From: Schizochytrium sp. TIO01 | Taxonomy: Eukaryota > Protista > Bigyra: Labyrinthulomycetes | Length of the DNA: 64,000 bases | Direction of reading: 5' to 3' | Assembly: GCA_004764695.1 (NCBI GenBank) | Contig: SMSO01000031.1 | Location: forward strand, 720,436 to 784,435 | In this document: positions 23,847-48,733 of the stretch, piece after piece | Layout: each line of letters starts with the position of its first letter | Position numbering within the stretch: the first letter of the stretch is position 1 | Notes under the pieces: generated by a model | Told to the model about the DNA's origin: nothing | Database searches by the model: none | The model's input: only the letters and a program-made list of their open reading frames with translations | Made by a program: the position numbers and the translations under genes

Positions 23847-26800
23847 TTATTGTAGTTTTGCAAAAGCTTTCTGACAAATGCTCGATGACGGAAATCTTTG
23901 GTGTGCGTCCGAAACGCACTCGCGTGCACCCAACTTGATAAGAATTTGAAGCACTTGAGCATTCGACGATAAATTCAAAATTGTCGAACATGCTTGTTCT
24001 TGCACGTCTGCATTCGTTCGATGTGCGCGCATGGCGGTCACAATCTCTGCGCCCACATTCAAATGTTGTCCCAGGATCTCTTTGTTACTATCATTATTGT
24101 AGGCGAGATTCATCAATGCTCCACATGCACTCTTTTGCACGCCCGCATTCGTTCGATGGGCACGCATGGCGGCCACAATCTCTGCACCCACATCCAAATC
24201 TTGTACCAGGATCTCTTTGTTGCGATCATTGAAACCAAGACTGCACAATGCTCCACATGCTTGTTTTTGCACGTCTGAACTCCTTCGATGTACGCGCATG
24301 GCGGCCACAATCTCCACGCCCACATTCAAATTTTGTACCAGGATCTCTTCGTTGCGGTCATTTACAGCAAGATTTAACAATGCGCAACACGCTTGTTTTT
24401 GCACGTCTGCATTCGTCCGATGTGCGCGCATGGCGGCCACAATCTCTGCGCCCAAATTCAAATCTTGTCCCAGGATCTCTCTGTTGCGATAATTTAAAGC
24501 AAGATTCCACAATGCCCAACATGCTTGTTCTTGCACGTACGCATTCCTTCGATGTGCAATCATGGTAGCCACAATCTCTTCGCCCACTTTCAAATCGTGT
24601 ACCACGAGCCCTTTCTTGCGATCATTTACAGCAAGATTCCACAACGCCCCAAATGCTTGTCCTTGCACGTCTGCATTTGCTCGATGTTCGCGCATGGCAG
24701 CCACAATCTCTGCGCCAGCATTCACATCTTGTCCCAGGATCTCTTCGTAGCGATCATCTAAAGCAAGATTACGCAATGCCCCACTTGCATACTCTTGCAC
24801 CTTAGCATTCGTTCGATGTTCGCGCATGGCGGCCATAATCACTGTGGCCACATCCAAATCTTGTCCCAGGATCTCACAGTTGCGATCATTATCGTCAGTA
24901 AGATTCATCAATGCCCCACATGCTTGTTTTTGTACGTCTGCATTCGTTCGATGTTCGCGCATGGCGGCCACAATCTCTGTGCCCACATCCAAATCTTGTC
25001 CCAGGATCTCACAGTTGCGATCATTATCGTCAGTAAGATTCATCAATGCCCCACATGCACTCACCTGCACGTCTGCATTCGTTCGATGTTCGCGCATGGT
25101 AGCCACAATCTCTGCGCCCACATTCAAATCTTGTACCAGGATCTCACTGTTGCGACCATTGAAACCAAGACTCATCAGTGCCCAACATGCATCCTCCTGC
25201 ACGTCTGCATTCGTTCGATGTGTGCGCATGGTGGTCGCAATCTCTGCGCCTACATTCAAATCTTGCACCAGGATCTCACAGTTGCGGTCATTTTCCGCAA
25301 GATTCCTTAATGCCCCACATGCTTGTTTTTGTATGTCTGCATTCGTTCGATGTGCACGCATGGCGGCCACAATCTCTGCACCCACATCCAAATCTTGTAC
25401 CAGGATCTCACAGTTGCGATCATTATTGTAGGTAAGATTCATCAGTGCCAAACATGCATTCTTTTGCACGTCTGCATCGGTTCGATGTGCGCGCATGGCG
25501 GCAACAATCTCTGCGCACACATTCAAATCTTGTACCAGGATCTCACAGTTGCGATCATTATTGTAGCCAAGATTCCACAATGCCCTACATGCTTGTTCTT
25601 GCACGTCTGCATTCGTTTGATGTGCGCGCATGGCGGCCACAATCTCTGCGGCCACATTCAAATCTTGTACCAGGATCTCACAGTTGCGATCATTTGAAGC
25701 AAGATTCATCAGTGCCCAACATGCTTGTTCTTGCACGTCTGCATTGGTTTGATGTGCGCGCATGGCGGTCGCAATCTCTGCGCCCACATTCAAATCTTGT
25801 ACCAGGATCTCACAGTTGCGATCATTATTGTAGCCAAGATTCCACAATGCCCTACATGCTTGTTTTTGCACGTCTGCATTCGTTTGATGTGCGCGCATGG
25901 CGGCCACAATCTCTGCGCCCACATTCAAATCTTGTACCAGGATCTCACAGTTGCGATCATTATTGTAGCCAAGATTCCACAATGCCCTACATGCTTGTTT
26001 TTGCACGTACGCATTCCTTCGATGTGCGCGCATGACAGCCACAATCTCTGCGCCCACATTCAAATCGTGTACCACGAGCCCTTTCTTGCGATCATTTAAA
26101 GCAAGATTCCACAATGCCCCAAATGCTTGTCCTTGCACGTCTGCATTCGTTCGATGTTCGCGCATGGTAGCCACAATCTCTGCGCCAGAATTCAAATCTT
26201 GTCCCAGGATCTCTTCGTAGCGATCCTCTAAAGCAAGATTACGCAATGCCCCTACTTGCATACTTTTGCACCTCAGCATTCGTTCGATGTTCGCGCATGG
26301 CGGCCACAATCGCTGTGCCCACATCCAAATCTTGTCCCAGGATCTCACAGTTGCGATCATTATCGTCAGTAAGATTCATCAGTGCCGCACATGCTTGCTC
26401 TTGCACGTTTGCATTCGTTCGATGTTCGCGCATGGCGGCCACAATCTCTACGCCTACATTCAAATCTTGTACCAGGATCTCTCTGTTGCAATCATGAAAA
26501 GCAAGACAACGCAATGCCCCACTTGCTTGCTCTTGCACGTTTGCATTCGTTCGATGTTCGCGCATGGCGGCCACAATCTCTGCGCCCACATTCAGATCTT
26601 GTACCACGATCTCACTGTTGCGATCATTTACAGCAAGATTCCACAATGCCCCACATGCACTCCTTTGCACGTCTGCATTCGTTCGATGTTCGCGCATGGC
26701 GGCCACAATCTCTGCGCCCACATTCAGATCTTGTACCAGGATCTCACTGTTGCGATCATTTACAGCAAGATTCCACAATGCCCCACTTGCCTCCTCTTGC

Positions 26801-29101
26801 ACCTCAACATTGGTTCGATGTGCACGCATGGCGGCCACAATCTCTGCGCCCACATTCAGATCTTGTACCAGGATCTCACTGTTGCGATCATTTACAGCAA
26901 GATTCCACAATGCCCCACATGCACTCCTTTGCACGTCTGCATTCGTTCGATGTGCGCGCATGGCGGCCACAATCTCTGTGCCCACATTCAAATCTTGTCC
27001 CAGGAGCTCACAGTTGCGATCAGTGAAAGCAAGATTCCGCAATGCCCCACATGCTTGTTCTTGCACGTCTGCACTCGTTCGATGTACGCGCATGGCGGCC
27101 ACAATCTCTGTGCCCATATCCAAAGCTTGCGCTAGACTAAGTTGGTTCTTCATATTACTGAACGTGAGGGTCCTGATACAAGCACATGCTGCAGCCTGCA
27201 CTGCTGCTTCGCTTGCATGCTCTTGCATGATACTTAACAGTATAGGGCCGATACCATAGGTCGCCATTGCAGTTTCAGCATACTCGCCGGTAGCTTCACG
27301 ATGAAACGCGTAATGGAATATCCAAAGTGCTTCGGAAATCACCTCGGCATCGCGTTGCTCTTCCTTTAGGATTCTATGCAAATGAACAAGAATACCCCGC
27401 TCACGAACAACTCTCCTCAGCTCATCATCGCCACCTGCGGTCTCAGCAGCTTTGAATTCACCTTCCAGAGCACCATGCAAGATCTGTAGTGTTCGTAGCA
27501 GATCTGTTCGATCGCCTCGATCAGCCAGATCTCGAACTAGACCCCGCACCATTTCGACATTCACATTTCGTTTTGCAGATGCGCGATGGATTCTCTTTAT
27601 GAATCCACCAGCAAGCCCGCGAATGATGCGGCTCGATCGGCGTTCACCACCTCGAGACTCGAAACTCTTTAGAATATCCTTAGCAGTTGGTCTGTTAGCA
27701 GGCTCCTTGTCCCAACAAGACTTCATGATGCGGACTATCCAGAGTTTCACAGGTACTTCGTCAGAGATTTCAGGACGCTCACCTGCGAGAACCCTGCTTT
27801 CAAGCTCTCCTGGATGATACACGAGATGCTCGTATGGCATCTCCTCGTGGTACATCTCCCACATAATCAGGCCTAGAGAATATATGTCTGCCTTTGTTGT
27901 CCAACGAGCAGGAGCTTGAAGTACTTCTGGAGCCATGTACACCCGGGTCCCGGCCACCGAAATGGTGTCTGCAAAACTTGTATTTGGGCTCGTTCTGTCT
28001 GCAAGACCAAAGTCGGTAAGCTTTACCAGGCCCAGGTCTTGGCTGAGGAGCACATTGGCAGGTTCCAGATCACCATGAATCACGTTTTCACTATGCAGAT
28101 AGCGGAGCCCTCGTGTGACACCGCGCAAAATGGCCTCTTTATCATCTAGTCCAAGGGTAATGCTTGTGCCGCTCGGTTTGCTCTCATACAGTAATTAAAC
28201 TAGAGAGAAGTCGCACTTGTCCATAACCAAATGAAACCGGTTCTGAATGATGCATGTGCCGAGAAGGCAGACGATGTTTTTGTGATTCAACCCTTGCCAG
28301 CTTTGGGCCTCTTCAATCAATGCCTTTTGCTCAGAAAGCTGAAGGTGGCCACGGATTTGTCGAACTCTCTTGATAGCAACTGGTATATTTATTCCATCCT
28401 CTCCTTCGAGAACACCTGACAGGACTTGTCCAAAGCTGCCTTCACCAAGAATATGTTCGGGATAGTCTATGGTAACCTTTTCCCGTGGTATTGTAGCCAT
28501 CTCAGACTCTTGAGTTCCTCGCTCTGCACTAATAAGCTCTTGCAGCGCTCGTCGCTGTCTTCGCGTCCCAGCACGACCTGCTATGATATCTGTAAGGCTG
28601 ATGTCAGGATGGTCTTTGAGCAATAACAGTATGGCTTCAACTTGGTCGTGACCTTCGTCTTGGTATTGCTTGATCATGTTTTCAAGACGAAGGTGGTCTT
28701 CTTCGGCATCGTCGAGATCGATTTGCTCGATGGCTGCAGGCGGGGACGGGAAACTCGAAGCGGATTCGGCAAACTTGGATCAATGTTTGCAGACGCTGCT
28801 CTACATCTGCGAGCACTTGAGTAGCTCTCTTGATGTCCATGAGTTGTAAAATTATGGTGGATCTATCATCACTAGGATCGAAGAACTCGCGAAGTAGCGA
28901 GATGATGTTGCGTAGACTAGCCTCCACCTGAATGAAATCAATATCAGCATTTTGCTGGGGCTCTAAGAAACTGGCAAGCTTGGTGAAGACATTGTTGAGA
29001 TGTGCAGCTCTTCGGCGGCACGTGTGTGTATGCTCGAGAAGTGTCGCGGCCTCGCGGGCTAGCTGAAGCGAAGAAGTGAAGTTTGGCATAATGCTCGGCA
29101 T
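23847..29101 (-). pseudogene. Paralog 2: MLKL-like 4HB/brace + kinase (HGDLEPAN) + ~24 ARM repeats; +1 frameshifts at ~28750 and 26253 and an in-frame TAA at 28195-28197
   Basis: ORF pieces 28682-29101, 28195-28677, 26239-28128 and 23847-26360 tile collinearly onto paralog 1. Confidence 0.78.
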
Positions 29102-30578
29102 GTTATGTGGCCCCGCGTGGCCGTGCTGGAGAGCTCAAACAGTACTGGTTGCTCTGAGAAGATGGTCTGCCGATGCCATGTTTGAACATCGTTTTGCTCA
29201 CGAGTTAACTACAAACAACTATCTACTATATACCCCACGATATACGTGCTACCAGTTGGGTGCTATGGGCTACTAGGGGCACTCATAAGGAAGTTACCTT
29301 TTTTCTTAAAATAGTAGCCCACTGGTCTGAAGTTCGCCTTGGGTTTAAAAATGAAGGCAAAGATAGGTAACGCGTATGGAAGCCCAATGACTAAAAGAAT
29401 ACTTTATGAATTGAGAAATACTGGTAAAGTAGATAGGTATTGAGAGAGAGATAAGTACCTAGGTAGTAGATAGGGTATTGTTGAGACTCGGTACTTAGAA
29501 CACGCAATCAGCTTTTTAAAGAAAACATTCAGTTAAGCCACTCTTACTAGTCAAAGGGTATTTCTTAAAATCTTGGGGAGACTGCAGTCCAACCATTGTA
29601 TAGTAGGCCTTCTTGGCCTGAAGAAGGAGGATGAATAGGACCAGCCTTCAAGGGAAGAAACTCATTCAATAAGGCTTCGCATTGTTGGAGTATCTATTGA
29701 AGTATAATAACTTAGTGTGTAGATAGTTAGTTGTGTATATCTGAAAACATCCCAACTAAAACGTACACAATACCAAAGTCCTAGACTTTGACTGTAGACT
29801 TTGACAGCAGTTCCTGAATGCTAAGTCGAACCATGATTGTCCTTCATCTCTCTACCCACACTATTTGTTGCTGATTTCCCTCACGTTAACTTGCAATAGT
29901 TTTCTACCTACAGAAAGATTCTTCTCTTCATTTATTTCCCTAAGTAGCATAAGGTATTCATTAGCGCTCTTGAAATAAATAAACTATATTTTAAAAAGAA
30001 AGTACTCAAATAAAATAAAGTAGGTCACTTGAGAAAAATTATGATGTGCTTCGTCTAGTCTACTATCTACCATTAATACATTACCACTACGAGTTTTTTT
30101 TTAAAATGGGGAAAACTTAAATTAAAAAACGTTTCTTTTAAAAGCTAATTTTTAAAAATATCAAAACAATTATTGACTAACGCCGGTCTTTTTAGCTGTT
30201 GTCACACATGTTCGAACAAGCACGCAAACAAATATATCGCAATTCCAAGATAGATAACGGTCTAGCTCTTCGCAGGTCAACCATGATTGTTTTCATTTGC
30301 TGATCATCTACATGCGTTCTATACAAAGCAAAGGAGCTTGCCTTCTTCATCGAAACAATCTCAATATGCAACTTAAACTAGGTATACCATGACTTAATTA
30401 GCATTTCTCTAGATAGAAAAACGAGGGCAATGCCTAGGTATGACAACTTTAGTTTCAAGTCTTTTGGTCCTTTCTTTCTGTCCATGCGCTGGTAGCCGTA
30501 GGTACCTACCTACCTGCATGCAAAGGAGGTAGCCAGCTAGAAGCACAGAAGTATTCTATAGACATATATATTTATCAC

Positions 30579-33500
30579 TTATTGTAGTTTTGCAAAAGCT
30601 TTCTGACAAATGCTCGATGACGGAAATCTTTGGTGTGCGTCTGAAACGCATTCGCGTGCACCCAACTTGATAAGAATTTGAAGCACTTGAGCATTCGACG
30701 ATAAATTCAAAATTGTCGAACATGCTTGGTCTTGCACGTCTGCATTCGTTCGATGTGCAATCATGGCGTCAACAATGTCTTCGCCCACATTCAAATGTTG
30801 TACCAGGATAACTCTGTTGCGATCATTATTGCTGGCAAGATTGCACAATGCTCCGCATGCTCTTTCTTGCACGTCTGCATTCATTCGATGTGCGCGCATG
30901 GCGGCCACAATCTCTGCGCCAACATTCAAATCTTGTCCCAGGATCTCTTTGTTGCGATCGTCCTTGTAGGCAAGATTCATCAATGCGTCACATGCTTGTT
31001 CCTGCACGTCTACATTGCTTCGATTTGCGCGCATGGCGGCCACAATCTCTGCGCCCACATTCAAATCTTGTACCAGGACCTCTCTGTTGCGATCATCATT
31101 GTAGGCAAGATTACACACTGCCCAACATGCGTAGTTTTGCACGTCTGCATTCGTTCGATGTGCGCGCATGGAGGCCACAATCTCTGTGCCCACATTCAAA
31201 TCGTGTCCCAGGATCTCACAGTTGCGATCATTATGATAGGCGAGATTGCACAAGGCCGAGCAAGTGTATTTTTGTACGTCTGCATTCGTTCGATGTTCGC
31301 GCATGGCGGCCACAATCTCTGCGCCCACATCCAAATCTTGTCCCAGGATCTCTTTGTTGCGAGCATTGAAAGCAAGATTCCACAATGCCCAACACGCACT
31401 CTCTTGCACGTCTGCATTCATCTGATGTTCGCGCATAGCGGCCACAATCTCTGCGCCCACATTCAGATCTTGTCCCAGGGTCTCTTCGTTGCGAGCATTG
31501 CAAGAGAGATTGCTCAATGCTGAGCAAGCATTCCCTTGCACGTCTGCATTCGTTCGATGTGCACGCATGCCAGCCACAATCTCTGCGCCCACATTCAAAT
31601 CTTGTACCAGGATCTCACTGTTGCGATCATTCATATAAGCAAGATTAGATAATGCCCCACATGCACTCATTTGCACGTCTGCATTCGTTCGATGTGCGCG
31701 CATGGCGGCCACAATCTCTGTGCCCACATTCAAATCTTGTCCCAGGAGCTCACAGTTGCGATCAGTGAAAGCAAGATTCCACAATGCCCCACATGCTTGT
31801 TCTTGCACGTTCGCATTCGTTCGATGTGCGCGCATGGCGCCCACAATCTCTGCGCCCACATCCAAATCTTGTGCTAGACTAAGTTGGTTCTTCATATTAC
31901 TGAACGTGAGGGTCCTGATACAAGCACATGCTGCGGCCTGCACTGCTGCTTCGCTTGCATGCTCTTGCATGATACTTAACAGTATAGGGCCGATGCCATA
32001 GGTCGTCATTGCAGCTTCAGCATACTCGCCGGTAGCTTCACGATGAAACGCGTAATGGAATATCCAAAGTGCTTCGGAAATCACCTCGGCATCGCGTTGC
32101 TCTTCCTTTAGGATTCTATGCAAATGAACAAGAATACCCCGCTCACGAACAACTCTCCTCAGCGCATCATCGCCACCTGCGGTCTCAGCAGCTTTGAATT
32201 CGCCTTTCAGAGCATCATGCAAGATCTGTAGTGTTCGTAGCAGATCCGTTCGATCGCCTCGATCAGCCAGATCTCGAACTAGACCCCGCATCATTTCGAC
32301 ATTCACATTTCGTTTTGCAGATGTGCGATAAATTCTCTTTATGAATCCACCGGCAAGCCCGCGAATGATGCGGCTCGAGCGGCGTTCACCACCTCGAGAC
32401 TCGAAACTCTTTAGAGCATCCTTAGCAGTTGGTCTGTTAGCAGGCTCCTCGTCCCAACAAGATTTCATGATGCGGACTATCCAGTGTTTCACAGGTACTT
32501 CGTCAGAGATTTCAGGACGCTCACCTGCGAGAACCCTGCTTTCAAGCTCTCCTGGATGATACACAAGATGCTCGTATGGCGTCTCCTCGTGGTACATCTC
32601 CCACATAATCAGGCCTAGAGAATATATGTCTGCCTTTGTTGTCCAACGAGCAGGAGCTTGAAGTACTTCTGGAGCCATGTACACATGGGTTCCGGCCACC
32701 GAAATGGTGTCTGCAAAACTTGTATTTGGGCTCGTTCTGTCTGCAAGACCAAAGTCGGTAAGCTTTACCAGGCCCAGGTCTTGGCTGAGGAGCACATTGG
32801 CAGGTTCCAGATCACCATGAATCACGTTTTCACTATGCAGATAGCAGAGCCCTCGTATGACACCGCGCAAAATGGCCTCTTTATCATCTAGTCCAAGGGT
32901 AATGCGTGTGCCGCTCGGTTTGCTCTCATACAGTAATTAAACTAGAGAGAAGTCGCACTTGTCCATAACCAAATGAAACCGGTTCTGAATGATGCATGTG
33001 CCGAGAAGACAGACGATGTTTTTGTGATTCAACCCTTGCCAGCTTTGGGCCTCTTCAATCAATGCCTTTTGCTCAGAAAGCTGAAGGTGGCCACGGATTT
33101 GTCGAACTCTCTTGATAGCAACTGGTATATTTATTCCATCCTCTCCTTCGATAACACCTGACAGGACTTGTCCAAAGCTGCCTTCACCAAGAATATGTTC
33201 GGGATAGTCTATGGTAACCTTTTCCTGTGGTATTGTAGCCATCTCAGACTCTTGAGTTTCTCGCACTGCACTAATAAGCTCTTGCAGCGCTCGTCGCTGT
33301 CTTCGCGTCCCAGCACGACCTGCTATGATATCTGTAAGGCTGATGTCAGGATGGTCTTTGAGCAATAACAGTATGGCTTCAACTTGGTCGTGACCTTCGT
33401 CTCGGTATTGCTTGATCATGTTTTCAAGACGAAGGTGGTCTTCTTCGGCATCGTCGAGATCGATTTGCTCGATGGCTGCAGGCGGGGACGGAAACTCGAA

Positions 33501-33831
33501 GCGGATTCGGCAAACTTGGATCAATGTTTGCAGACGCTGCTCTACATCTGCGAGCACTTGAGTAGCTCTCTTGATGTAAAATTATGGTGGATCTATCATC
33601 ACTAGGATCGAAGAACTCGCGAAGTAGCGAGATGATGTTGCGTAGACTAGCCTCCACCTGAATGAAATCAATATCAGCATTTTGCTGGGGCTCTAAGAAA
33701 CTGGCAAGCTTGGTGAAGACATTGTTGAGATGTGCAGCTCTTCGGCGGCACGTGTGTGTATGCTCGAGAAGTGTCGCGGCCTCGCGGGCTAGCTGAAGCG
33801 AAGAAGTGAAGTTTGGCATAATATTCGCCAT
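30579..33831 (-). pseudogene. Paralog 3: MLKL-like 4HB/brace + kinase (HGDLEPAN) + ~9 ARM repeats; 11-nt deletion at ~33577 and an in-frame TAA at 32937-32939
   Basis: ORF pieces 33424-33831, 32937-33557 and 30579-32870. Same C-terminal cap as paralog 2 (GARECVSDAHQRFPSSSICQKAFAKLQ). Confidence 0.78.
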
Positions 33832-37620: not shown

Positions 37621-39282
37621 CATATATTTCCATTTTTATATTATGATGATAATATGGAATTTAAATAGCTTCAGATGTGCTTCTTTCGGTTCAAACTTAA
37701 GCACAAAATCTATCCCTTGACAAATCTAACTGAACTTATATGGTGGAAGGTCACTGACAAGTCTAGTGACTTCCAGCTCTAGCTTCACAAAAAATTATTC
37801 GACCTCATGTCATGTTATCATGTCCCAAAATTAGCTTGACAAATTTTATATCAGTTAAAGGATGCTCTATAGGTTAATTTTGAGCCTTCAGAGTCACGTC
37901 TTTGTCGCATTGTCTTCAAGTTAATGGGAAGGAGTTGGTTTTGGCTCCTTCAAATTTAGTTCTAGAAATGACGATTGCACAGTGCTCCCTTCCTCGTCGT
38001 TTAGTGGTAATTACTTATCAGAGAATTTCTACATAGACAAATATTGGCATGACTTGGAGTTACAAGAAATACAAATCGCGAATGGAGATATGACAACCAG
38101 AGACGACAGAAGAAAAATTAAATTAAAGATCTCGAAACTACCTTCGAATATTTGCCTCTACACTCCACGAGTAGCACCATTAGAATTTGGGGAAAGAAGG
38201 TAGCATTACCATGCTCAGCCTAAATTCAGGTTGACAAAGATTATGCTCGTTTAGATGGAGTACACTCAAAGTAGACAGTAGTACCAGGGGACCTTTTAAT
38301 TTGGGAAACTGCTCTTCTTAGCGATTTTTATATTTCATTTTAAAATCAATTTTCAACATCTCAAAACAATTCGCTAATGCTGGCGTTTTCAGCTTTTGTT
38401 GCGTATATTCGAACAAGCACGTAGATATATCAGAGTTTGAAGGTGATTAGCGCTTCAGATCCAATCAGGTCATCATGATTATTTTGGCGTGCACGAATTC
38501 TTTACTTTGAAAACTGAAATTGAATAAAAGCGAACAAAAGTTGCCAAGAACCAAAGAAATCGAGCGGTGGGGAAAGGCGTGAGTCTTCTACCTACAGGAG
38601 CAAAACGTTAAATAATTCTCATATATATTCTTAGATTCTGCATTCAATTTGTCTTGTAACACGAATTAACCTTTGGTACTCACACCAACCTTTAGATTAG
38701 ACAATAGATTCGGTTATTTTATGGTTTGTATTACTTATCACTGTTGACTCGTTCGTTTCTAATCCGGGCACACTCCTTCATAGTGGAAACTACTAGTACT
38801 AGTTAGTTAATAACCACTACTACTAGTACTACATAAGATGGTGTTCTTTATAAGGAAATGAAACATGGATAAGAGATTCTAATAACTGTGCTAGGGTATA
38901 TTGAACATGCAAGTCAATAAGAGCTAGCTAAATACTCTTAACACCGTGATTTGGCTCGCTCGCGCGCTAGCGACATGACATGCAACGGCACTTAAGACAT
39001 AGCACAGCGAATTTGGAGCTCGTGGTGCTTGGGCTTGGCATACATTCCTCTCCTCATCAAAGACTAGCTGAAACGCCAAGATCAAGCCCAAGTCCAGGGA
39101 AGATTGCTTCTGCGTGATTGATCCTCGCGCAGTTTTGTATAAGAGATATCGGATTGGGCAGCATAACTCTTGTTGGAGTGATAGCGTAAACTTTCGGAAA
39201 GGTTTACAGGAGGACCGCCTTGATAGCACACGTTCTTTACACGACAGAAAACACGAGGTGATAAGTTATTCTTTCCTGGAAA

Positions 39283-42200
39283 ATGGAGGACGCTCTCCGT
39301 GTACGGCTTCAAAGGCTTGCAAAGTTTGCTGATACTACTGGATACCGAGATAGAACTGAAGTTGAAAGACCGGAGAGCCAAGACGCATCTCCCCAACAGG
39401 AACATGATCGAGACGATCACCTTGCAATTGGGGCTACATCAAATCAGAAAGAACTTCATGAATGCTTTGAGTTATTGCGAGACTATGATGGGGAATCTCG
39501 GATCGCCACAGAGCTGCTTGTTTTATGTGCGGAAACTGCACTCAAACACAATGCCCTCGAGGTTGCTGATCAAAGTGCTGAACTAAGCTTCATTCGAAGC
39601 CAGGTGCATGATCAATTTTTCTGTCGAGCAAAGTTTGTAAAAGCCCTCATTGAGCACAAACGTGGGGAACTTCAATCTGGGGCTGACTTACTAAAACACG
39701 CTTTGCGTGCTGTAGAGCATATCAATGCAGCTGTGCAGGTCTGTTTAGAGCCAAGCCGCATTAACAATTATGGCTTTCTTGTTTTCAACGCCTCTGTAGT
39801 GGCCTGGCAGGTCATGCGCCCGGTCATGCGCAAAGGCTGCCGAAAACATACTCTACAGGTTCTCACGAGATTGTGTGATGCTCTCAATGTCCTCGATGAT
39901 CCGCATAAAGCATGGCGAGCACGCCTCAGTCTTGCATTAGCATTAGCGCATCATGAGGAAGGTGCTGCAGCGCCAGCACTTTCTGAGGCAAAGCGAGCTT
40001 TGGAGCTAATTGTAGATGAAAGTCCAACCAGTGATATCGTTCGTGAGACCAATGCCTTTTATGTCCATATTCAACAGCAAGGCGCTGTCGCGGTGGCAAA
40101 GACAGCGCGCTCACAGGGAGACGTACAGCCTCTGTTGCAGTGCATTCGTTCGGGAATCATATCTGATAAAGCCTCTATTCAAATGGAGCTCCAAGAAGCC
40201 TTGAAAGTTACAGTGCCCAATTCTCAGGAAGATGCATCCGGTGAAAACAATAAGCAACATGCATCAACAAGCGTCATCAGCATTGGCCGTGCAGCGCTGC
40301 GCAGTCACCTCTATGCCCTTAGTGAAGAATGTATGGTTGCTGCAGCATCCATTCCCAGCCGGTTCTTAAGTGCTGTTGAAGAAGTTGACCTGGACCTATT
40401 CCGTGCTGAGTGGCTTGCTGAGTGCCCTGGCGCTTTGCCCGAGATTGCTTCCACAGGCACAAAACCTGCAGAGGACAACGTCAAGAATGTTTCTCAAACT
40501 AGCGAAAGAGCGATAAACCTCGCTAAAAGAATTCAAGCCATGCGCTTATTGGATCGATGCATTTCATTTTGCCTTCGTTTACATCAGCCTGCGCTTTTAG
40601 AGGAGGCGTGCCTGGTGACCTGGAACATCAGTCTTCCTCTGCTGCAGCCACATCTTCGCACCCATGTTCACAAAGCATTTCAAACTGCAGCAAATGCTCT
40701 GGAGGAAGTAGACTCTCCACTGCTGGAGTTACGCGCTCACCTTCACAGCGAAGTTTCGAAATGCGAGATGGCAGCTGACTTCCTCACCCGAGCGAATCAA
40801 CAGGTCGAAAAGGCCATGCGACTTCATCAAAGTAGCCAAGCAATGGGTGGGAATGTTATGCGAGAGGACCGCTCCCAAAACCCCGACTTATCGCGCTTTC
40901 TTAAACCTATGCATGAAAAGCTCAAGTTGAAGTCAAGTATATACAGTGAGCCCGACAGCCCATTAGAGCAGGCGATTCTTCAAGTTGAGCAAGCAAAGGA
41001 TGCCAATGAAAGGCATCTCAAAGCCTCACTTCTCACAAGAGCAGCTGAGTTTCTTGACATAGCAGCTGAGGATTTTCTTCTTCTTCAAGCGCATCAACAG
41101 CAGCAGCAGCAGCAGCAGCATCAACAAAAAGGACAACTCTCAGCTTCAGAAGGCGGGCAAAAGGATAAATTTCACCTACCATCCCAAATTATAGTCGACA
41201 GTGTCAACTTATGGGCAGAGATTGCTCAGCTCGCGAGTGAACAAAGGCTTCTAGACATTACAGAACGAGCAGCAAATCACGTTTTCGCATGTGAAAGCTT
41301 TCCAGAAGGCCAGGACGTAGATCGTAAGTCATGGTACTTGCAACGCGCGCGAACTCATTTTGTTTTTGCTGATGCTTTAGCGCGACGCATTCAGAAGATG
41401 CAAGTTCATGAGCAAGTTCCTTTAGTCACAAACATCCATGTACGGGCTCTTGGCATAATAGTGCCTGCCCCAATTGAATCAGCTGACTATGATGGAACCC
41501 TAGAATCTGAACTTACCAATGAGGATAGTCTCGGCAATCAATCTATCAAAAACATTACTTCAGCTTCCAAACTCACTTTTGAGTGGCCTTCTTGGGAGGC
41601 ACCCCCATTTCCTGATTTGTTGACAACCTATAAAGATGATGTCATAACGCATTTGATAAAGGCCTTACAGATTGGCTCCGAGCTGGGGGAGGGGTGGCTC
41701 ATCGAAAATGCAGCAACTTATCTTTGGAATTACCATCTACATATGTTCAATGGGCCATTACAGAGACTTCAATTTGTTACAGACGCCTTATTGGATGGTT
41801 TAAAAACTGCTCTTGAAGCTTTGCAGGACCTTGACACTAGCGAACGTAATGGTACATTGTTTTGTGCCCTTTCATGTGCTTTAGCGCAGGGGTTTGAAGG
41901 TCGAGCCATTCGAACAAAAGTCATTGGATCTTCTGATAGTCTTACAAAGCCTGAAGATGATTTGCAGTCTGCGGTTGAAATCTGTCAACAGGCTATGCAA
42001 GGTTATTCTCCACGAATCACAAAAGAAATCATTGCAACGCTTCAACGTGTCCAGCGGCGTCGTAAAGTTCCGCAAAATCTTCCTGAAGATCAGCTAGCTG
42101 CTGGATTTGCAGTTATTGAACTTCTGCGTTTGGAATTTGACCTTGTTCCTCAGGATGAGAAACTGAAATTGTTAGGAGCTTACTATGAGCGGATTAGAAA

Positions 42201-45200
42201 TATTACATCTCCCCTGGTTGAATTGGAGAATCCTGACAGACCTATTCATGTGGAAATCTGGTCACGCTTAGCTCGCCAAGCATTCCAGATCAATCAAACT
42301 GATATTGCCGAGAAGTGTTCTCAAGCAGTACTTGGATCACAAGATGGAAAAGGATCAACAACCGATACTCCACAAGAGTTGTGGCGCTGGTTTTCTATAT
42401 GCGAGACCGTTCGGGGGCAAGTTGCAGCCAAACGAGCTTTTGCCGTTACACATGACAAAACAACACAGGACGATCTTCGCAAAGAAAGCTTACGCCACCT
42501 AAGTACAGCAGCCGAGTATGGTGTACGAAGTAAAAATAGCATTCTTGTTCTTGATGCAGCAAAGGAGCTATGGAATGTTGCGACGGAGTTAGTAGGTTCC
42601 ACTGGAACGCGGAGTATTCTTTTTAGGCCATTGCGAGCAATGTTGCAATACTTACTTGCGGTTCGTGAAAAGTCAGATATGGCGTTACGTGTGAATATGT
42701 ATGCCGCCCTTTTTGAATGCTACAAGGACATGAAAGATTGGAAGGGTGGTCTTAAGGTCGTTGACGAAGCATTTAGTATTATTCCTCAGAGCCTTCAAAA
42801 GCGTTTATGGGCAGCTCGTGTCATATTCAATAGTAAACTGAACAAGGATGTCGCTGCAGGTCTTCATAAAATGAAAGAAGGCAATAATTCGCTTCAAGCC
42901 AAGGCGTGGATGACACTGGCTATGTCGTCTGCTAATCAGGAAGACCAACTCCAGGCATTTGTTCAGGCTCTTAATTTGTTAGAAGGCTCCTACGAGCGAG
43001 TTGATTACTTGATTGAGTTTGCAGAGTGGCTTCATGCAAACCACTTTTCGCGAGACGATGTTACACAATGTCTGGTTAGCGCTGCTGATCAAATTCTTGA
43101 CGTTGAGATCGCAGCAGAGAAGCGTGCTCAAGCGGCTGCGGAAACGCGGGCTAAAAATGCAATGTCGCCTAAGTCTCCAAGTTCCCAAATGTCTGCAATT
43201 ACTCGTCGTACAGCCCGTTCTGCAAGTCCAAAACGAAACCCTAAGGTACCTCGAGAGCTGGGAGACCCTTGTGGAGATGCTCCTCGCGATCTGAGGTTAG
43301 GGGACTATCTTAAACTGGTGCAGATCTTTGTAATGCTTGCTCGGTCAGTGCCACACTCCAAGATTCGAGCAGACATGGCGCTTGTAGCCCATGAACATCT
43401 TGCTACTGCTTGGACCCGATTCATTGCCCCTGGTCATGCGTGTGAGCTTAAGCAGCTCGTGAGTGAAAGTTCGAGAAAGAGCATTCCAATTGAAGTAGCA
43501 AGTACCATTGAGCGGCCTTCCTTAACTGTCCATTATCTACTAGAGCTTGGATTGCTCTTACAGGAGTGTGGACAACAGGCACTTTCGATTACTTGTTTTG
43601 TAGTGATGGAGTGTATCTGCGTCGATGTTTTGCAAGATAAGACCTTTGCGACACTTTCTGGTCTTAAAATGGTTCGCACTCTGTCCGTGATTAACTTGGG
43701 TGCTGTAGCACGTGAAAAGATGAACGGGATTAATATATCCCTCAATGAAGCAGATCGTGTACGCTTTGGAGTCGAGGTAGAACAGCTTCTAGAACGCCAG
43801 CACATTCTTGGCAATTCGAACTCCCAGCAATCCATGACTTCCGCTCATGATGTGGATCATGTGCCATCAAACATGCCAGTGGAAAAGGATGCTGCAAACG
43901 AGGTAATTACTAAGTCTGGCGTTCAACCTACACAACGGCGCGTACTTGGGCCTATGAAAATTCGTGAAGTTTGGGCACGACTTGCCTCAGAGTTAATAGA
44001 CCTAGGGTATATTTTCGAGGGTAAAGTTTTTCTTCATGAGGTTGGACTTCATAATCTTGCATATGACGATAAGGAAAATCGCTTTCGTGCAAAGGCTGTT
44101 GAGGCAAAGATTGCTCTTATTGAAGGAAAAGAGAGCTCAGCTCTGGCACGCGCTGTTGAGGCAATGGAAGCATTAAGTGAACACCGTGGTGGAAACGTTA
44201 CGGATTGGCTACACTGTATTCAAGAAGTAACTGCGTGTCTACAACACTCATCTCGAAACGCAGAAGCTCGCAAATTACTGCAGAAAGCTCTTGTCGTATA
44301 CAATGCGAAGCTAAAGAGCATGGGGACTTTGAAGGATCTTGATCTCGAGGTTGCAACTTCATATATTGAAACGCTAGTTGCAGAACATTTGTTCGGAGAA
44401 GTTCGCGAACGTGCGCAACAAGGTGCAGTCTGGCAAGATGAGTGGGTGCAATGCCAATTTCACTTGCGCAACGCTCAAGATAGAGTTTTAATTGCGACCA
44501 AACCCCAGTGTGCGTCCATCGCAACCATGGACATCCTGCTTCGACATTGTGGACTTTGGATGGAAGTGTACAAAACTCGAGCAATGAGGCAGGAACAAGT
44601 TGCGTTTGCAAACATTGTTGATGGACTATGTCGTGCAAGTCGAAGTGGAGAGGCAATGCTTCAAATGGTTCTTCCTACCTCGGAGATATTTTGCGCAGAT
44701 GTCAAAGGAGTCAATCTCCCTTTAGAGCGGTACGTAGGCCGGGTTCACTATATGCTTGGAAATATTGAGTTACTTCACGATGCTTACTGCAATCCTCTTC
44801 CTGCGGTATCATCAGCCGCACGTGAAGCAGAGCGCGTTGAGCAACTGAATCCTGCAGAACGGTGGCTTTTACAAACCGCTCCTGTGCCACCGCCAAGCCT
44901 AGCCGATCTACATCCAAGCGCTGTGCAACGGGCCTGCAGTCATTTTATGAGTGCTTACAAGCATCTTCAGCATATCCCTGTTCAAAGTGCAGCTGCTTTA
45001 GTTGCAGCTGGTCAAGGTTTGTGTCGGAACCAAGATCAACGAGGCGAAGAACTCCTTCAAAATGGTTGCCAGCTGGCACTCAAGCAACGTGACTATGATC
45101 TGGCAAAGGTTGCTGCGCACGAACTTGTTCTAGCATTTCATTCTTTTGATGCATTACTATTGTATCAAGCTTGTAGGTTTAGAACATGGATGTCTCAGCT

Positions 45201-46661
45201 GGTAGAGAGTGCTGCATTGGATTCAGAAGGAAAGTTGAGCCAATTTATTCGTTTGAGAACTCATATTCAAAAACACCTTTTTTCGCCAGATGAGCTGGGG
45301 ATACTCATCAAGAGGACAGTAAAGCAACCGAGCATAAGATTCATTGGCCATACGCAGAGATTCGCAAATATCTACAACAGTCTGTACAGCTAAACCGCCT
45401 CAGCTGCCACACAACCATTCCCAATATGATTAAAACATTACCCTCGGGCTTGGACTTCATCGTGATTTCTCTTTCTGAGAATGGGCGAATTATTTACACT
45501 ACACAATTTTCGAAGGAAGAGTATATCGATGGTGATGATACAAACAATGAAAAGGGTCATACTAAGCCAGAGGTTTTCCAATTCCCTCTTGAAGAATTTG
45601 ATGCACAAGATTTGCATGTGTTACTACAAGATATGACCACATGTCGCAAACGAATGAGCTCCCAACTTTTGAGTCGCACTCACGATCCTCAATTTGACGA
45701 AAACAGTTGTGAATTAGAGGATAAGGCTGCAGAAGATATTAGTGTGTTAATCCGCAGGATGAAAAAGTTGTTGCTGCCAGCATTACCATCCACCATTCGA
45801 GCATCTCGATTTGATGGAACGGAAGGTGCCTCAGACTTGCGAAAATCTGATTCGAGCAGCTCTAGCCAAGTTATGAGACGTTTGGTGGTACTTGCTGATC
45901 CTGAGTTAAGTCGCTTGCCGTTAGAGCTTCTCTTCCAGGACAAGTCGCAGTATTTGTCTGTATCTCGAGATCTTTCGCTCCATATGTTTCATCATCGTTT
46001 ACAAGCTGTTACGCCCGGTCTTACTGATGCAATGGCTGCAAGCCAAGTTATTGAACCAGCTGTCGCGCCTCGCTCAGCGTCAGTCCGCTATGTTATAGAC
46101 TCTCGCTCAGAAGAATCTCTTTTGACAGCTGATTTTAGTTCAGGCTCTGCGTGGGAGGGGTTTATGGGTCCTAAACAAGGCATGCCAAGTCGGGGGGATT
46201 GGCAAGTTTTGCTGGGAGGAAAACCAGCAGCTGCAGAGCAGGCACAATTTATCTTTTGCGGTTTGGGTGCATTTTTTGCACAAGTGCAGCCTGGCGCTCT
46301 AGCAGCTGTTGACATGCGAAAGCGAAGCACGGCAATTCTTTTAGATCGCGCGGTAAATGATGCATCATATCGATTCCAAAGTGAGCATGAAGCAAAGCTT
46401 ACATCAATTGAGTTGCAGCTAGAGCAACCAGTTGAAACAGCAGCATTGCTATCAATATGCGGTGTCAATTCAATTGTACAACATCAATGGGCGTGCTCAG
46501 TGCACCGTGCGCATCAGATGTTACAACGCATGAGTAACCTTTTAAAACAGGCCCCTAATTCCTCACAACTAATTGTCGACGCCCTGCACACCCCTGAGGA
46601 TAGTCAATTGAAGGAGCGCGTGCGAGCGAACGCAGTCTTCTACGGAGTACCACTAATGTAA
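39283..46661 (+). CDS. CFAP46: Cilia- and flagella-associated protein 46 (TTC40-like); one frameshift at the G-run 45297-45300 joins ORFs 39283-45393 and 45426-46661
   Basis: ELLVLCAETAL, QFFCRAKF, YGFLVFNASV, TPR-like helices, and C-terminal LPLELL..SRDLSLHMFHHRL. Adding one G gives an open frame GDTHQEDSK...TTIPNMIK into the second ORF. Confidence 0.75.
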
Positions 46662-47289: not shown

Positions 47290-48048
47290 TCATGCCGATT
47301 CGTCTGAAGGTGGGTAGAGCTTCTCGGCATAGTTTGCAGCAACGTATGCTGTACAACCAGATAAAATCCCACCCCCTAGACCCCAAGCGTAAGTCATAAT
47401 ATTCATCTGAATTCCTCTGGCGCCAGCAGACTGGAGAATTGAAAACATGCTATTCGGTGCTGTAAATGGGCTCTGTATCAAGGCAGCAATACTATTCGCT
47501 TGAATCCCTGCCTTTCCAAATCCAATCGCATTCATTGCACCAATTGGAATCGCACTACTTGAAAGAGCGTGAATACCGATGACAGTTGCTCCAATAACAA
47601 GTGTAATCTTAGCACATCGCCTCACTGAGTCGTCTTCAATATTCACAGTTTGAAGGACTTCCGTGCTAGCAATGGCACTCGCGGCAGCAGAGTAGCCTGA
47701 AGCGGCATATCCTCCAATTGCTCTTGCAGAAGCGGTTGTAGCATTCATAGCAGCCGCTCCAACCTGGATAACTCTCTCGTTGGCAGTGGCATTCACGGCA
47801 GCAGAGTAGCCTGAAGCGGCATATCCTCCTATGGTTCTTGCAGCAGCACTTGCAGCAACCCCAGTGTCATATAGGAGCTTCAGAGATGCATACCCATGGA
47901 GGGCTGGTGGTGAGTCGCTGCAAGTATTATCCGATTTTTGTTGCGGACTTGTTCCCATTTCTCCTGACCCAATTGTATGCCACGCTGCGCGTCTGCGGTT
48001 CTCAGCGTGCCTTTTCTGATCGTTGAAGGTTTGTAGAAGCTGGAGCAA
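47290..48048 (-). CDS. IFI6/IFI27 (Ifi-6-16, ISG12-motif) family membrane protein
   Basis: AIGFGKAGIQANSIAALIQS...NSMFSILQSAGARG matches the remembered ISG12 motif GFTxxGIAAxSxAA..S..GSLVAxLQSxGA, with flanking hydrophobic helices. First in-frame ATG is at 47958, so the true start is uncertain. Confidence 0.7.
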   Translation of the reverse strand: MLQLLQTFNDQKRHAENRRRAAWHTIGSGEMGTSPQQKSDNTCSDSPPALHGYASLKLLYDTGVAASAAARTIGGYAASGYSAAVNATANERVIQVGAAAMNATTASARAIGGYAASGYSAAASAIASTEVLQTVNIEDDSVRRCAKITLVIGATVIGIHALSSSAIPIGAMNAIGFGKAGIQANSIAALIQSPFTAPNSMFSILQSAGARGIQMNIMTYAWGLGGGILSGCTAYVAANYAEKLYPPSDESA

Positions 48049-48733
48049 AGGTCCAAGACCCTCTCTGATAACAAGTCTTTTTATCTTAGCTGGAGTTAGA
48101 TAGGTACTAAGGTCCTAATACTACTGCTAATTCTACCTACCCATAGACTGAAGGTTTGTTTTTAGTTATTATGTCCCCTATTATCATTCGCATTCTTCTT
48201 CTTCTTCTAATAATTAAAAACAAACAAAATAATAAATTAAAAAATTCTGATATATATATACTATTTTTTTTAACATATAGCTAGATAATCCATTGTTTAA
48301 AACTAAAATTAACAATGCAACTCTTCCTTCATATATATACTGTTGAAGATTTGTTTCCGTAGAGATTTTTCTCAGCAGAGAAGCGCTAAATAAGTATGCG
48401 CACTTCAGAAAAGTCATAGAAAGAAGAAATTAAACAAAGAGGTATTCAACGCTAACGCCATCGGTGTTTTCTGCGAAAATGGTTTTGCTCTCGGCCCAGA
48501 AGGCTTCTTGAGAAGCTCTCGCTCGTCATATCTCAGGTGTCTCCAAGTGCAGCCACGCGAGGCCTTACCCTCTGCGCAATTTAGAAACTCCGCAGCCCAT
48601 GCCACACCATGAGCTCTCTATACATACATATATATACATATCGAAGATGTTTTAGGGTCGCAGAGAGTCTTAGACGGGATGATAGGCGAAATAGTAGAGT
48701 TCCTGTAAGATGTAACAGAGCAGCGCCTGTGTA

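Follow-up and report, generated by a model that had tools for sequence, protein, structure and literature searches.

Introduction

MLKL, in which a four-helix bundle is joined through a brace to a kinase fold, is represented by the necroptosis executor of animals, by AtMLKL3 in plants and by HELL-kinase proteins in fungi, and mutations in its brace region are reported to activate it (PMC7305203; 10.1101/2021.07.08.451689). HELL-kinase fusions are reported to occur in fungi (PMC12881547), and a paper on MLKL evolution names animals, fungi and plants only (PMC11476962). [quoted passage not shown] Armadillo (ARM) repeats have themselves been engineered, and a designed-ARM peptide-pocket library randomises positions 26, 29, 30, 33 and 36 (PMC11228518). 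This paper describes a locus of the thraustochytrid Schizochytrium sp. TIO01 and compares it with these systems. The locus lies on contig SMSO01000031.1, in a window of 64,000 nucleotides (nt), which is the whole stretch of DNA analysed and to whose positions all coordinates refer, and it consists of three tandem paralogous genes on the minus strand, g1, g2 and g3, whose products combine a predicted MLKL-like bundle and brace, a kinase and an array of ARM repeats with a predicted groove under selection.

The products of g1 to g3 are read here as putative all-in-one intracellular death receptors, a reading to which we assign a probability of roughly 0.55. In a protist, a putative executor module of MLKL type is here combined with a diversifying ARM array, an arrangement that appears to be new, and the proteins are neither NLRs nor MLKL proper. 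No description of the bundle, kinase and hypervariable ARM architecture was found in the open-licence literature, subscription papers and supplements being outside the scope of the search. For protists other than choanoflagellates, antiviral defence is said to be poorly understood (PMC12911909), and a survey of 67 protists reports no homologues of the mammalian necroptosis regulators (PMC7539657).

Domain Order and the ARM Array

All three paralogues have the same domain order, namely N-terminal bundle, brace, kinase and ARM array, and their 5' halves are 94–98% identical in DNA. The middle paralogue g2 (23847–29101), which carries the array under study, has 24 ARM units, while g1 (18051–22354) has 17 more diverged units and g3 (30579–33831) has nine. 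In g2 the predicted MLKL-like four-helix bundle (28754–29101) begins at the likely start ATG and is followed by the brace with the acidic motif DxxDAxED, which aligns with the MLKL brace, and by further helices ahead of the kinase (28480–28746). Then come the protein kinase domain (27667–28479; Pfam Pkinase / PK_Tyr_Ser-Thr), a helical linker of degenerate ARM-like units (27115–27666), the array proper (23919–27114) with units of 44 or 45 codons, and the last unit with a C-terminal cap and the stop codon (23847–24053), the cap sequence being identical in g3. The 5' half of g2, that is, the MLKL-like domain and the kinase, was overlooked in the initial annotation, and the domain of about 200 residues upstream of the kinase is without a Pfam match.

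The initial annotation had described an array of 132/135-nt units with a constant scaffold and a few variable columns, and this description holds for the 24 minus-strand units at 23919–27114, where the spacings are 132 or 135 nt, plus one of 133. Unit columns are numbered from G = 1, and the statistics for g2 are based on 22 of the 24 units, the frameshifted unit 7 and the terminal unit 24 having been dropped. The helix order within a unit is H2 (2–10), H3 (15–29) and H1 (33–42). Pfam Arm and ARM_LRRK2 match above cut-off, and by sequence the repeats are nearest to the ARM domain of LRRK2. An AlphaFold model of g2 units 16–24 with the cap has a predicted local distance difference test score (pLDDT) of 88, although the alignment behind it is shallow, since its rows are mostly self-overlapping. 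With this model Foldseek finds a designed ARM protein (expectation value E 8e-10, template modelling score TM 0.83) and importin-alpha (TM 0.77–0.82). As modelled, the g2 repeats are thus a genuine ARM array, a three-helix solenoid.

The units are less uniform than had been claimed. The description of their DNA as nearly identical was overstated, as the mean pairwise identity in g2 is 83.6% (range 73.5–98.5%), with 4 of 231 unit pairs at 95% or above and 15 of 231 at 90% or above, and identity is 60.4% within eight variable codons versus 88.7% outside them. The columns of highest entropy are 30, 36, 26, 19, 23, 20 and 16, and columns 4, 8, 11, 18, 21, 24, 25 and 28 are invariant; column 36, which lies in helix 1, is an additional variable site that had been overlooked. 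The residues listed earlier for the variable positions are right if the 50 units of the three genes are taken together, but the pairs MS, GN, NY and ER are found in the neighbouring genes only, outside 23847–27130.

The array has grown by duplication, and its units are mosaic (PHI-type test, p = 0.0095). A block of three units, 6–8 (26055–26454), is duplicated as units 17–19 (24585–24983), unit 6 being 94% identical in DNA to unit 17 and unit 8 95.5% identical to unit 19, with unit 7 aligning to unit 18. Units 2 and 4, as well as units 9, 10 and 12, are also recent copies (10 versus 12, 98.5% nt identity). In 43 units of the three genes, 39 different groove words of five residues occur. The 3' end of g2 together with the intergenic DNA downstream of it (22880–25134) is likewise found again as the 3' end of g3 (29622–31872), with 89% identity over 2265 bases, which marks the tandem duplication unit.

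Variable Sites and the Predicted Binding Groove

The variability of helix 3 is concentrated on a single face (variability moment, permutation p = 0.0001). In the register of the designed-ARM consensus, columns 16, 19, 20, 23 and 26 correspond to library positions 26, 29, 30, 33 and 36, exactly the set randomised in that library, and the placing of the variable sites on helix 3 in the initial annotation is supported. Column 27 is Asn in 19 of the 22 g2 units, and we take it to be the conserved helix-3 Asn that binds the peptide backbone in ARM proteins. By homology, the variable columns are predicted to sit on the concave groove. Columns outside the groove that were taken as exposed (a hand-picked set, e.g., 3, 9, 37, 41 and 42) are conserved in g2, with a mean entropy of 0.64 versus 1.84 for the groove. 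At the protein level, all 10 of the 10 relatives with at least six units have a higher entropy in the groove than in an exposed set picked by hand; the excess is clear in young arrays, such as those of Hondaea P0002 (2.04 versus 0.94) and P0126 (1.90 versus 0.90), and in old arrays the groove is barely above the exposed set (P0003, 2.19 versus 2.15).

Thus the g2 array resembles designed ARM proteins and importin-alpha in its modelled three-helix solenoid (TM about 0.8), its helix-3 Asn and its library positions. It differs from designed ARM proteins in its natural, LRRK2-like units of 44 or 45 residues, in varying also at columns 30 and 36 and in its fusion to a bundle and a kinase. As a separate observation, in P0127 and P0135 the ARM array stands ahead of a kinase and after a hydrophobic N-terminal stretch, and the units of P0135, judged by eye, look very much alike and seem to vary at the helix-3 positions that are variable in g2.

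Selection on the Predicted Groove

Selection was examined with codon models, without multi-nucleotide changes, using code that reproduced the IQ-TREE M0 likelihood, on two sets: the 22 g2 units and 43 of the 50 pooled units (g2 units 7 and 24, g3 unit 9 and g1 units 8, 11, 12 and 17 were dropped). The likelihood-ratio test (LRT) of M2a versus M1a gave 32 for the first set and 91 for the second, with omega2, the dN/dS ratio of the selected class, at about 4.3, and the top M2a sites were columns 20, 23, 26, 30 and 36. The eight-column groove set used initially had been chosen after the entropies were inspected; because of this post hoc choice, the site test was repeated with the five library positions of PMC11228518. 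For these externally defined positions omega is 3.3 and 3.2 in the two sets (p = 2.5e-7 and 6.7e-15), and for the interleaved helix-3 core it is 0.21 and 0.27. In 23 simulations without selection (8 clonal and 15 mosaic) an LRT of 32 was never reached; the maximum was 15.7, in the one simulation that was nominally significant, and groove omega in these nulls was at most 1.13. In the codon models, the predicted groove positions diversify faster than silent sites. The diversifying selection proposed in the initial annotation is thereby supported, whereas the combinatorial recognition code proposed with it is a hypothesis; codon-model dN/dS is above 1 at the variable sites and the signal exceeds that of the mosaic null simulations; variation spread evenly with dN/dS of 1 or less was not found, nor were variable sites in the buried core or on the convex face, the surface being assigned by homology.

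N-Terminal Bundle, Brace and Kinase

A profile was built from the family N-terminus and searched against the PDB and against 1.84 billion representative proteins. In the PDB search the top six of 16 hits were MLKL, spanning bundle and brace (E 0.002–0.019), and the alignment includes the basic cluster after helix 1 as well as the acidic brace motif. The bundle was modelled on the relative P0008, which is 54% identical to the window domain (pLDDT 87.8), and in this model the helices at 124–198 precede the kinase, the brace helix being 124–145. With the P0008 model, ranks 1–9 in Foldseek are all MLKL (probability 0.91–1.00, E 0.013–0.28), and VIA puts the N-terminal domain of MLKL first (Z 10.9, root-mean-square deviation 2.9 Å, 126 aligned), with mouse MLKL at Z 9.0 and plant MLKL3 at Z 7.0. 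Profile, Foldseek and VIA, which are individually weak and partly dependent, are concordant, and the N-terminus is predicted to be MLKL-like. Look-alikes of the bundle in the Atlas belong to the MCAfunc, MLKL_N, RPW8 and PUB10_N clusters (scores 0.75–0.83), and are given as a lead only. When four copies of the N-terminal domain were predicted as a complex, the score was 0.00, which has no bearing either way.

The kinase of g2 keeps the VAIK Lys, the catalytic Asp and DFG, and in g2 and g3 the catalytic-loop Lys is replaced by Glu. Among 15 relatives, the DFG Asp is missing in nine and kept in six. The window proteins therefore share with MLKL the predicted four-helix bundle, the brace with its acidic motif and the kinase fold, with catalytic losses in many relatives, but they are MLKL-like and not MLKL proper, because VAIK, the catalytic Asp and DFG are kept in the window copies. 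Unlike MLKL, they also add a long C-terminal hypervariable ARM array, and their host is a unicellular stramenopile; a RIPK3-like activator did not turn up, none having been searched for.

With fungal NLRs the proteins share the succession of a putative effector, a central module and a repeat array evolving in concert, with selected sites in a groove that is placed by homology. HeLo-type effectors are common in fungal NLRs, and the window bundle is predicted to be MLKL-like. Unlike in those NLRs, the repeats are ARM and a kinase occupies the position of NACHT or NB-ARC, neither of which is among the Pfam families matched by the open reading frames (ORFs) of the window, so the proteins resemble the all-in-one NLRs of fungi (PMC4986451; PMC12881547) in logic only. 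The likeness to fungal repeat arrays drawn in the initial annotation stands for the selected groove sites and, as regards internal conservation, extends to a few unit pairs only: the mean amino-acid identity of g2 units is 71%, and the fungal threshold level of 85% is reached in 11 of 231 unit pairs only, although units 9, 10 and 12 are 87–96% identical to one another.

Relatives and Other ARM Fusions

Eleven relatives match past the kinase, and the named ones are all from Hondaea fermentalgiana. Against the 1.84 billion representatives the N-terminus profile matched just 12 proteins, 11 of them family members, and the family is therefore narrow; P0124, a weak profile match, was set aside, since it is a repeat protein without relation to the family. 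Hondaea proteins named “Protein kinase, putative” (e.g., P0002, P0006, P0122 and P0123) belong to the same family, with an SH-aLRT of 100 for the kinase clade in a quick tree of 69 rows from which shorter matches were omitted. In the same tree the algal kinases P0155 (Phaeothamnion, CAM9695898.1) and P0153 (Diacronema, KAG8462613.1) fall outside the thraustochytrid family clade. The Phaeothamnion protein has the order MLKL_N, kinase and ARM, and the Diacronema protein has the same order with MLKL_N below threshold; hhalign gave no alignment between the family N-terminus and P0155. With the kinases outside the clade and the N-termini not alignable, independent origins of the architecture are possible. 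Both the Hondaea and the algal counterparts carry automatic names only.

Moreover, 15 hand-picked proteins out of 120 listed matches were rescanned for ARM fusions. Similar ARM arrays were found in other organisms with MLKL_N alone (P0147), TIR (P0148), caspase (P0149 and P0158), ADP-ribosyltransferase (P0171) and U-box (P0139), and such fusions of ARM arrays with effector-type domains possibly represent a broader class of receptors built on ARM. P0021, a kinase of the family clade from Aurantiochytrium, carries SAM domains in place of ARM and possibly belongs to a partner or sister family.

Gene Integrity and Neighbouring Genes

The genes were compared with four (X1, X2, X3 and X7) of 20 other sequencing runs containing the region. 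An extra base at 26253 in g2, overlooked in the initial annotation, shifts the frame in unit 7, and another at 28751 shifts it between bundle and brace. The 26253 base is missing from the best-matching contigs of X1, X2 and X7 (three other letters, one gap). One base at 28748 or 28751 is also absent, over the full depth of X2, X3 and X7 and over part of that of X1, so that both frameshifts probably arose in the assembly or are peculiar to this strain. In addition, the g2 kinase contains an in-frame TAA (28195–28197), which is shared by g3 (32937–32939). X2 and X7 have a sense codon here over their full depth, X3 in 100/136 and X1 in 707/1448, and some copies may truly carry the TAA as a variant. 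An intron was considered as its explanation and dropped, because the reading frame continues as in g1 and because a sense codon is present in other runs. The 5' part of g1 contains two one-base insertions (about 22214 and 21834), and g3 has an 11-base deletion (about 33577).

X7, by a guess an RNA run, shows coverage of the coding part but none of the intergenic DNA at 29259–30650, a weak hint of transcription. The contigs of the other runs break within the repeats and none spans a whole gene, and protein searches gave no strain-level match, that is, nothing above 67% identity.

Two further genes of the window may be mentioned. The ORF at 47290–48114 on the minus strand, about 13 kb from the cluster, matches the interferon-induced 6-16 family (PF06140) with an E of 1.4e-6, just below cut-off. 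The CFAP46-like gene at 39265–46661 on the plus strand shows a frame change around 45294–45393, which is an intron or another assembly indel.

Proposed Mechanism

If g1 to g3 encode death receptors, their ARM groove would bind an extended non-self peptide, whose backbone would be held by the conserved helix-3 Asn and whose side chains would be read by columns 16, 19, 20, 23, 26 and 30. Unequal crossover and gene conversion would reshuffle the units into new specificities, to which point selection would add. In the resting state the brace and the kinase would keep the bundle shut; a ligand, likely a viral or other foreign protein, would release it via a kinase or pseudokinase switch, and the released bundle would oligomerise, insert in the membrane and kill its own cell. 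A rapid birth and loss of copies is likely and would account for those that are broken. Viral pressure is plausible because thraustochytrids are reported to carry persistent mirusviruses (PMC12911909; PMC12606086). As a tentative extension, single MLKL-kinase-ARM proteins might provide thraustochytrids with a necroptosis-like immunity, as part of a wider protist class of ARM receptors with exchangeable effectors directed against giant-virus or mirusvirus proteins.

Alternative Explanations

Several observations in this and the next paragraph weigh against reading the proteins as death receptors. All kinases of the window retain the core catalytic residues, unlike MLKL; the Pfam MLKL_N cut-off is reached neither by the window bundles nor by those of the family (best E 0.015; 2/11 members), no Foldseek match reaches E 0.001, and designed helical bundles are tied with MLKL in VIA (Z 9.3–10.0). 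Instead, the proteins could be variable-specificity signalling or trafficking kinases, in which the groove is selected as well, the bundle serves for oligomerisation or as an adaptor, and the protein acts by phosphorylation and not by causing death. In plant U-box/ARM and ARM-only proteins the N-terminal bundle is such an oligomerisation or adaptor domain, and the PUB10_N, DUF7792 and MCAfunc clusters among the Atlas neighbours, the DFG Asp kept in the window copies and in six relatives, and the closeness of the repeats to LRRK2 all speak for signalling. However, we consider this unlikely: the basic cluster and the brace motif align specifically with MLKL, MLKL tops the profile, Foldseek and VIA searches, and catalytic residues have been lost repeatedly, in 9 of 15 relatives, which suggests that the proteins can do without catalysis.

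Other observations concern the genes themselves. As assembled, g1, g2 and g3 are all broken; sites outside both core and groove are near neutral (omega 0.98 and 0.86 in the two sets), and the kinase has a pN/pS of about 0.7 with few changes, both as in decaying copies. Pairwise omega of the groove by the NG86 method is just 1.23 in g2 and 0.92 in g3, synonymous divergence in the groove is about twice that of other sites, and a separate silent rate in the model lowers omega to 2.0–2.4 (p 0.004–0.017). Between two samples, moreover, an older member of the family shows 99% identity and an equal repeat number. The broken copies, the near-neutral sites and the low NG86 ratio would suit generic young-repeat evolution in decaying genes, in which a relaxed surface, gene conversion and multi-nucleotide changes inflate omega and there is no recognition function, and both relaxed and positive selection between paralogous repeats are reported across life forms (PMC5120217). 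This explanation is quite improbable, as the other exposed columns of g2 stay conserved by the hand-picked comparison given above, the signal goes beyond the mosaic null simulations, the frameshifts are missing from the closest contigs in other runs and the groove excess recurs in the Hondaea arrays P0002 and P0126. The least probable of the alternatives retains the same death output, with the receptors serving kin or self recognition, that is, allorecognition at ectoplasmic-net contact or mating, like het-e and het-d; somatic fusion incompatibility is not known in thraustochytrids, which counts against it. It would be in keeping with the fungal HNWD/NLR repeats, which are reported to show the same evolutionary pattern and some of which control heterokaryon incompatibility (PMC4986451; PMC12881547).

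Significance

If the reading of g1 to g3 as death receptors is true, the MLKL-type death module extends to unicellular stramenopiles, ARM joins the repeat types that are used as hypervariable receptors, and a kinase replaces the NTPase of NLRs. Natural diversity is found at precisely the pocket positions randomised by protein engineers, so that the arrays would be a natural counterpart of the modular ARM peptide-binder library. Thraustochytrids are cultured and industrially used, and the group carries persistent mirusviruses; the idea that such proteins recognise foreign peptides and kill the cell is therefore directly testable in these organisms.

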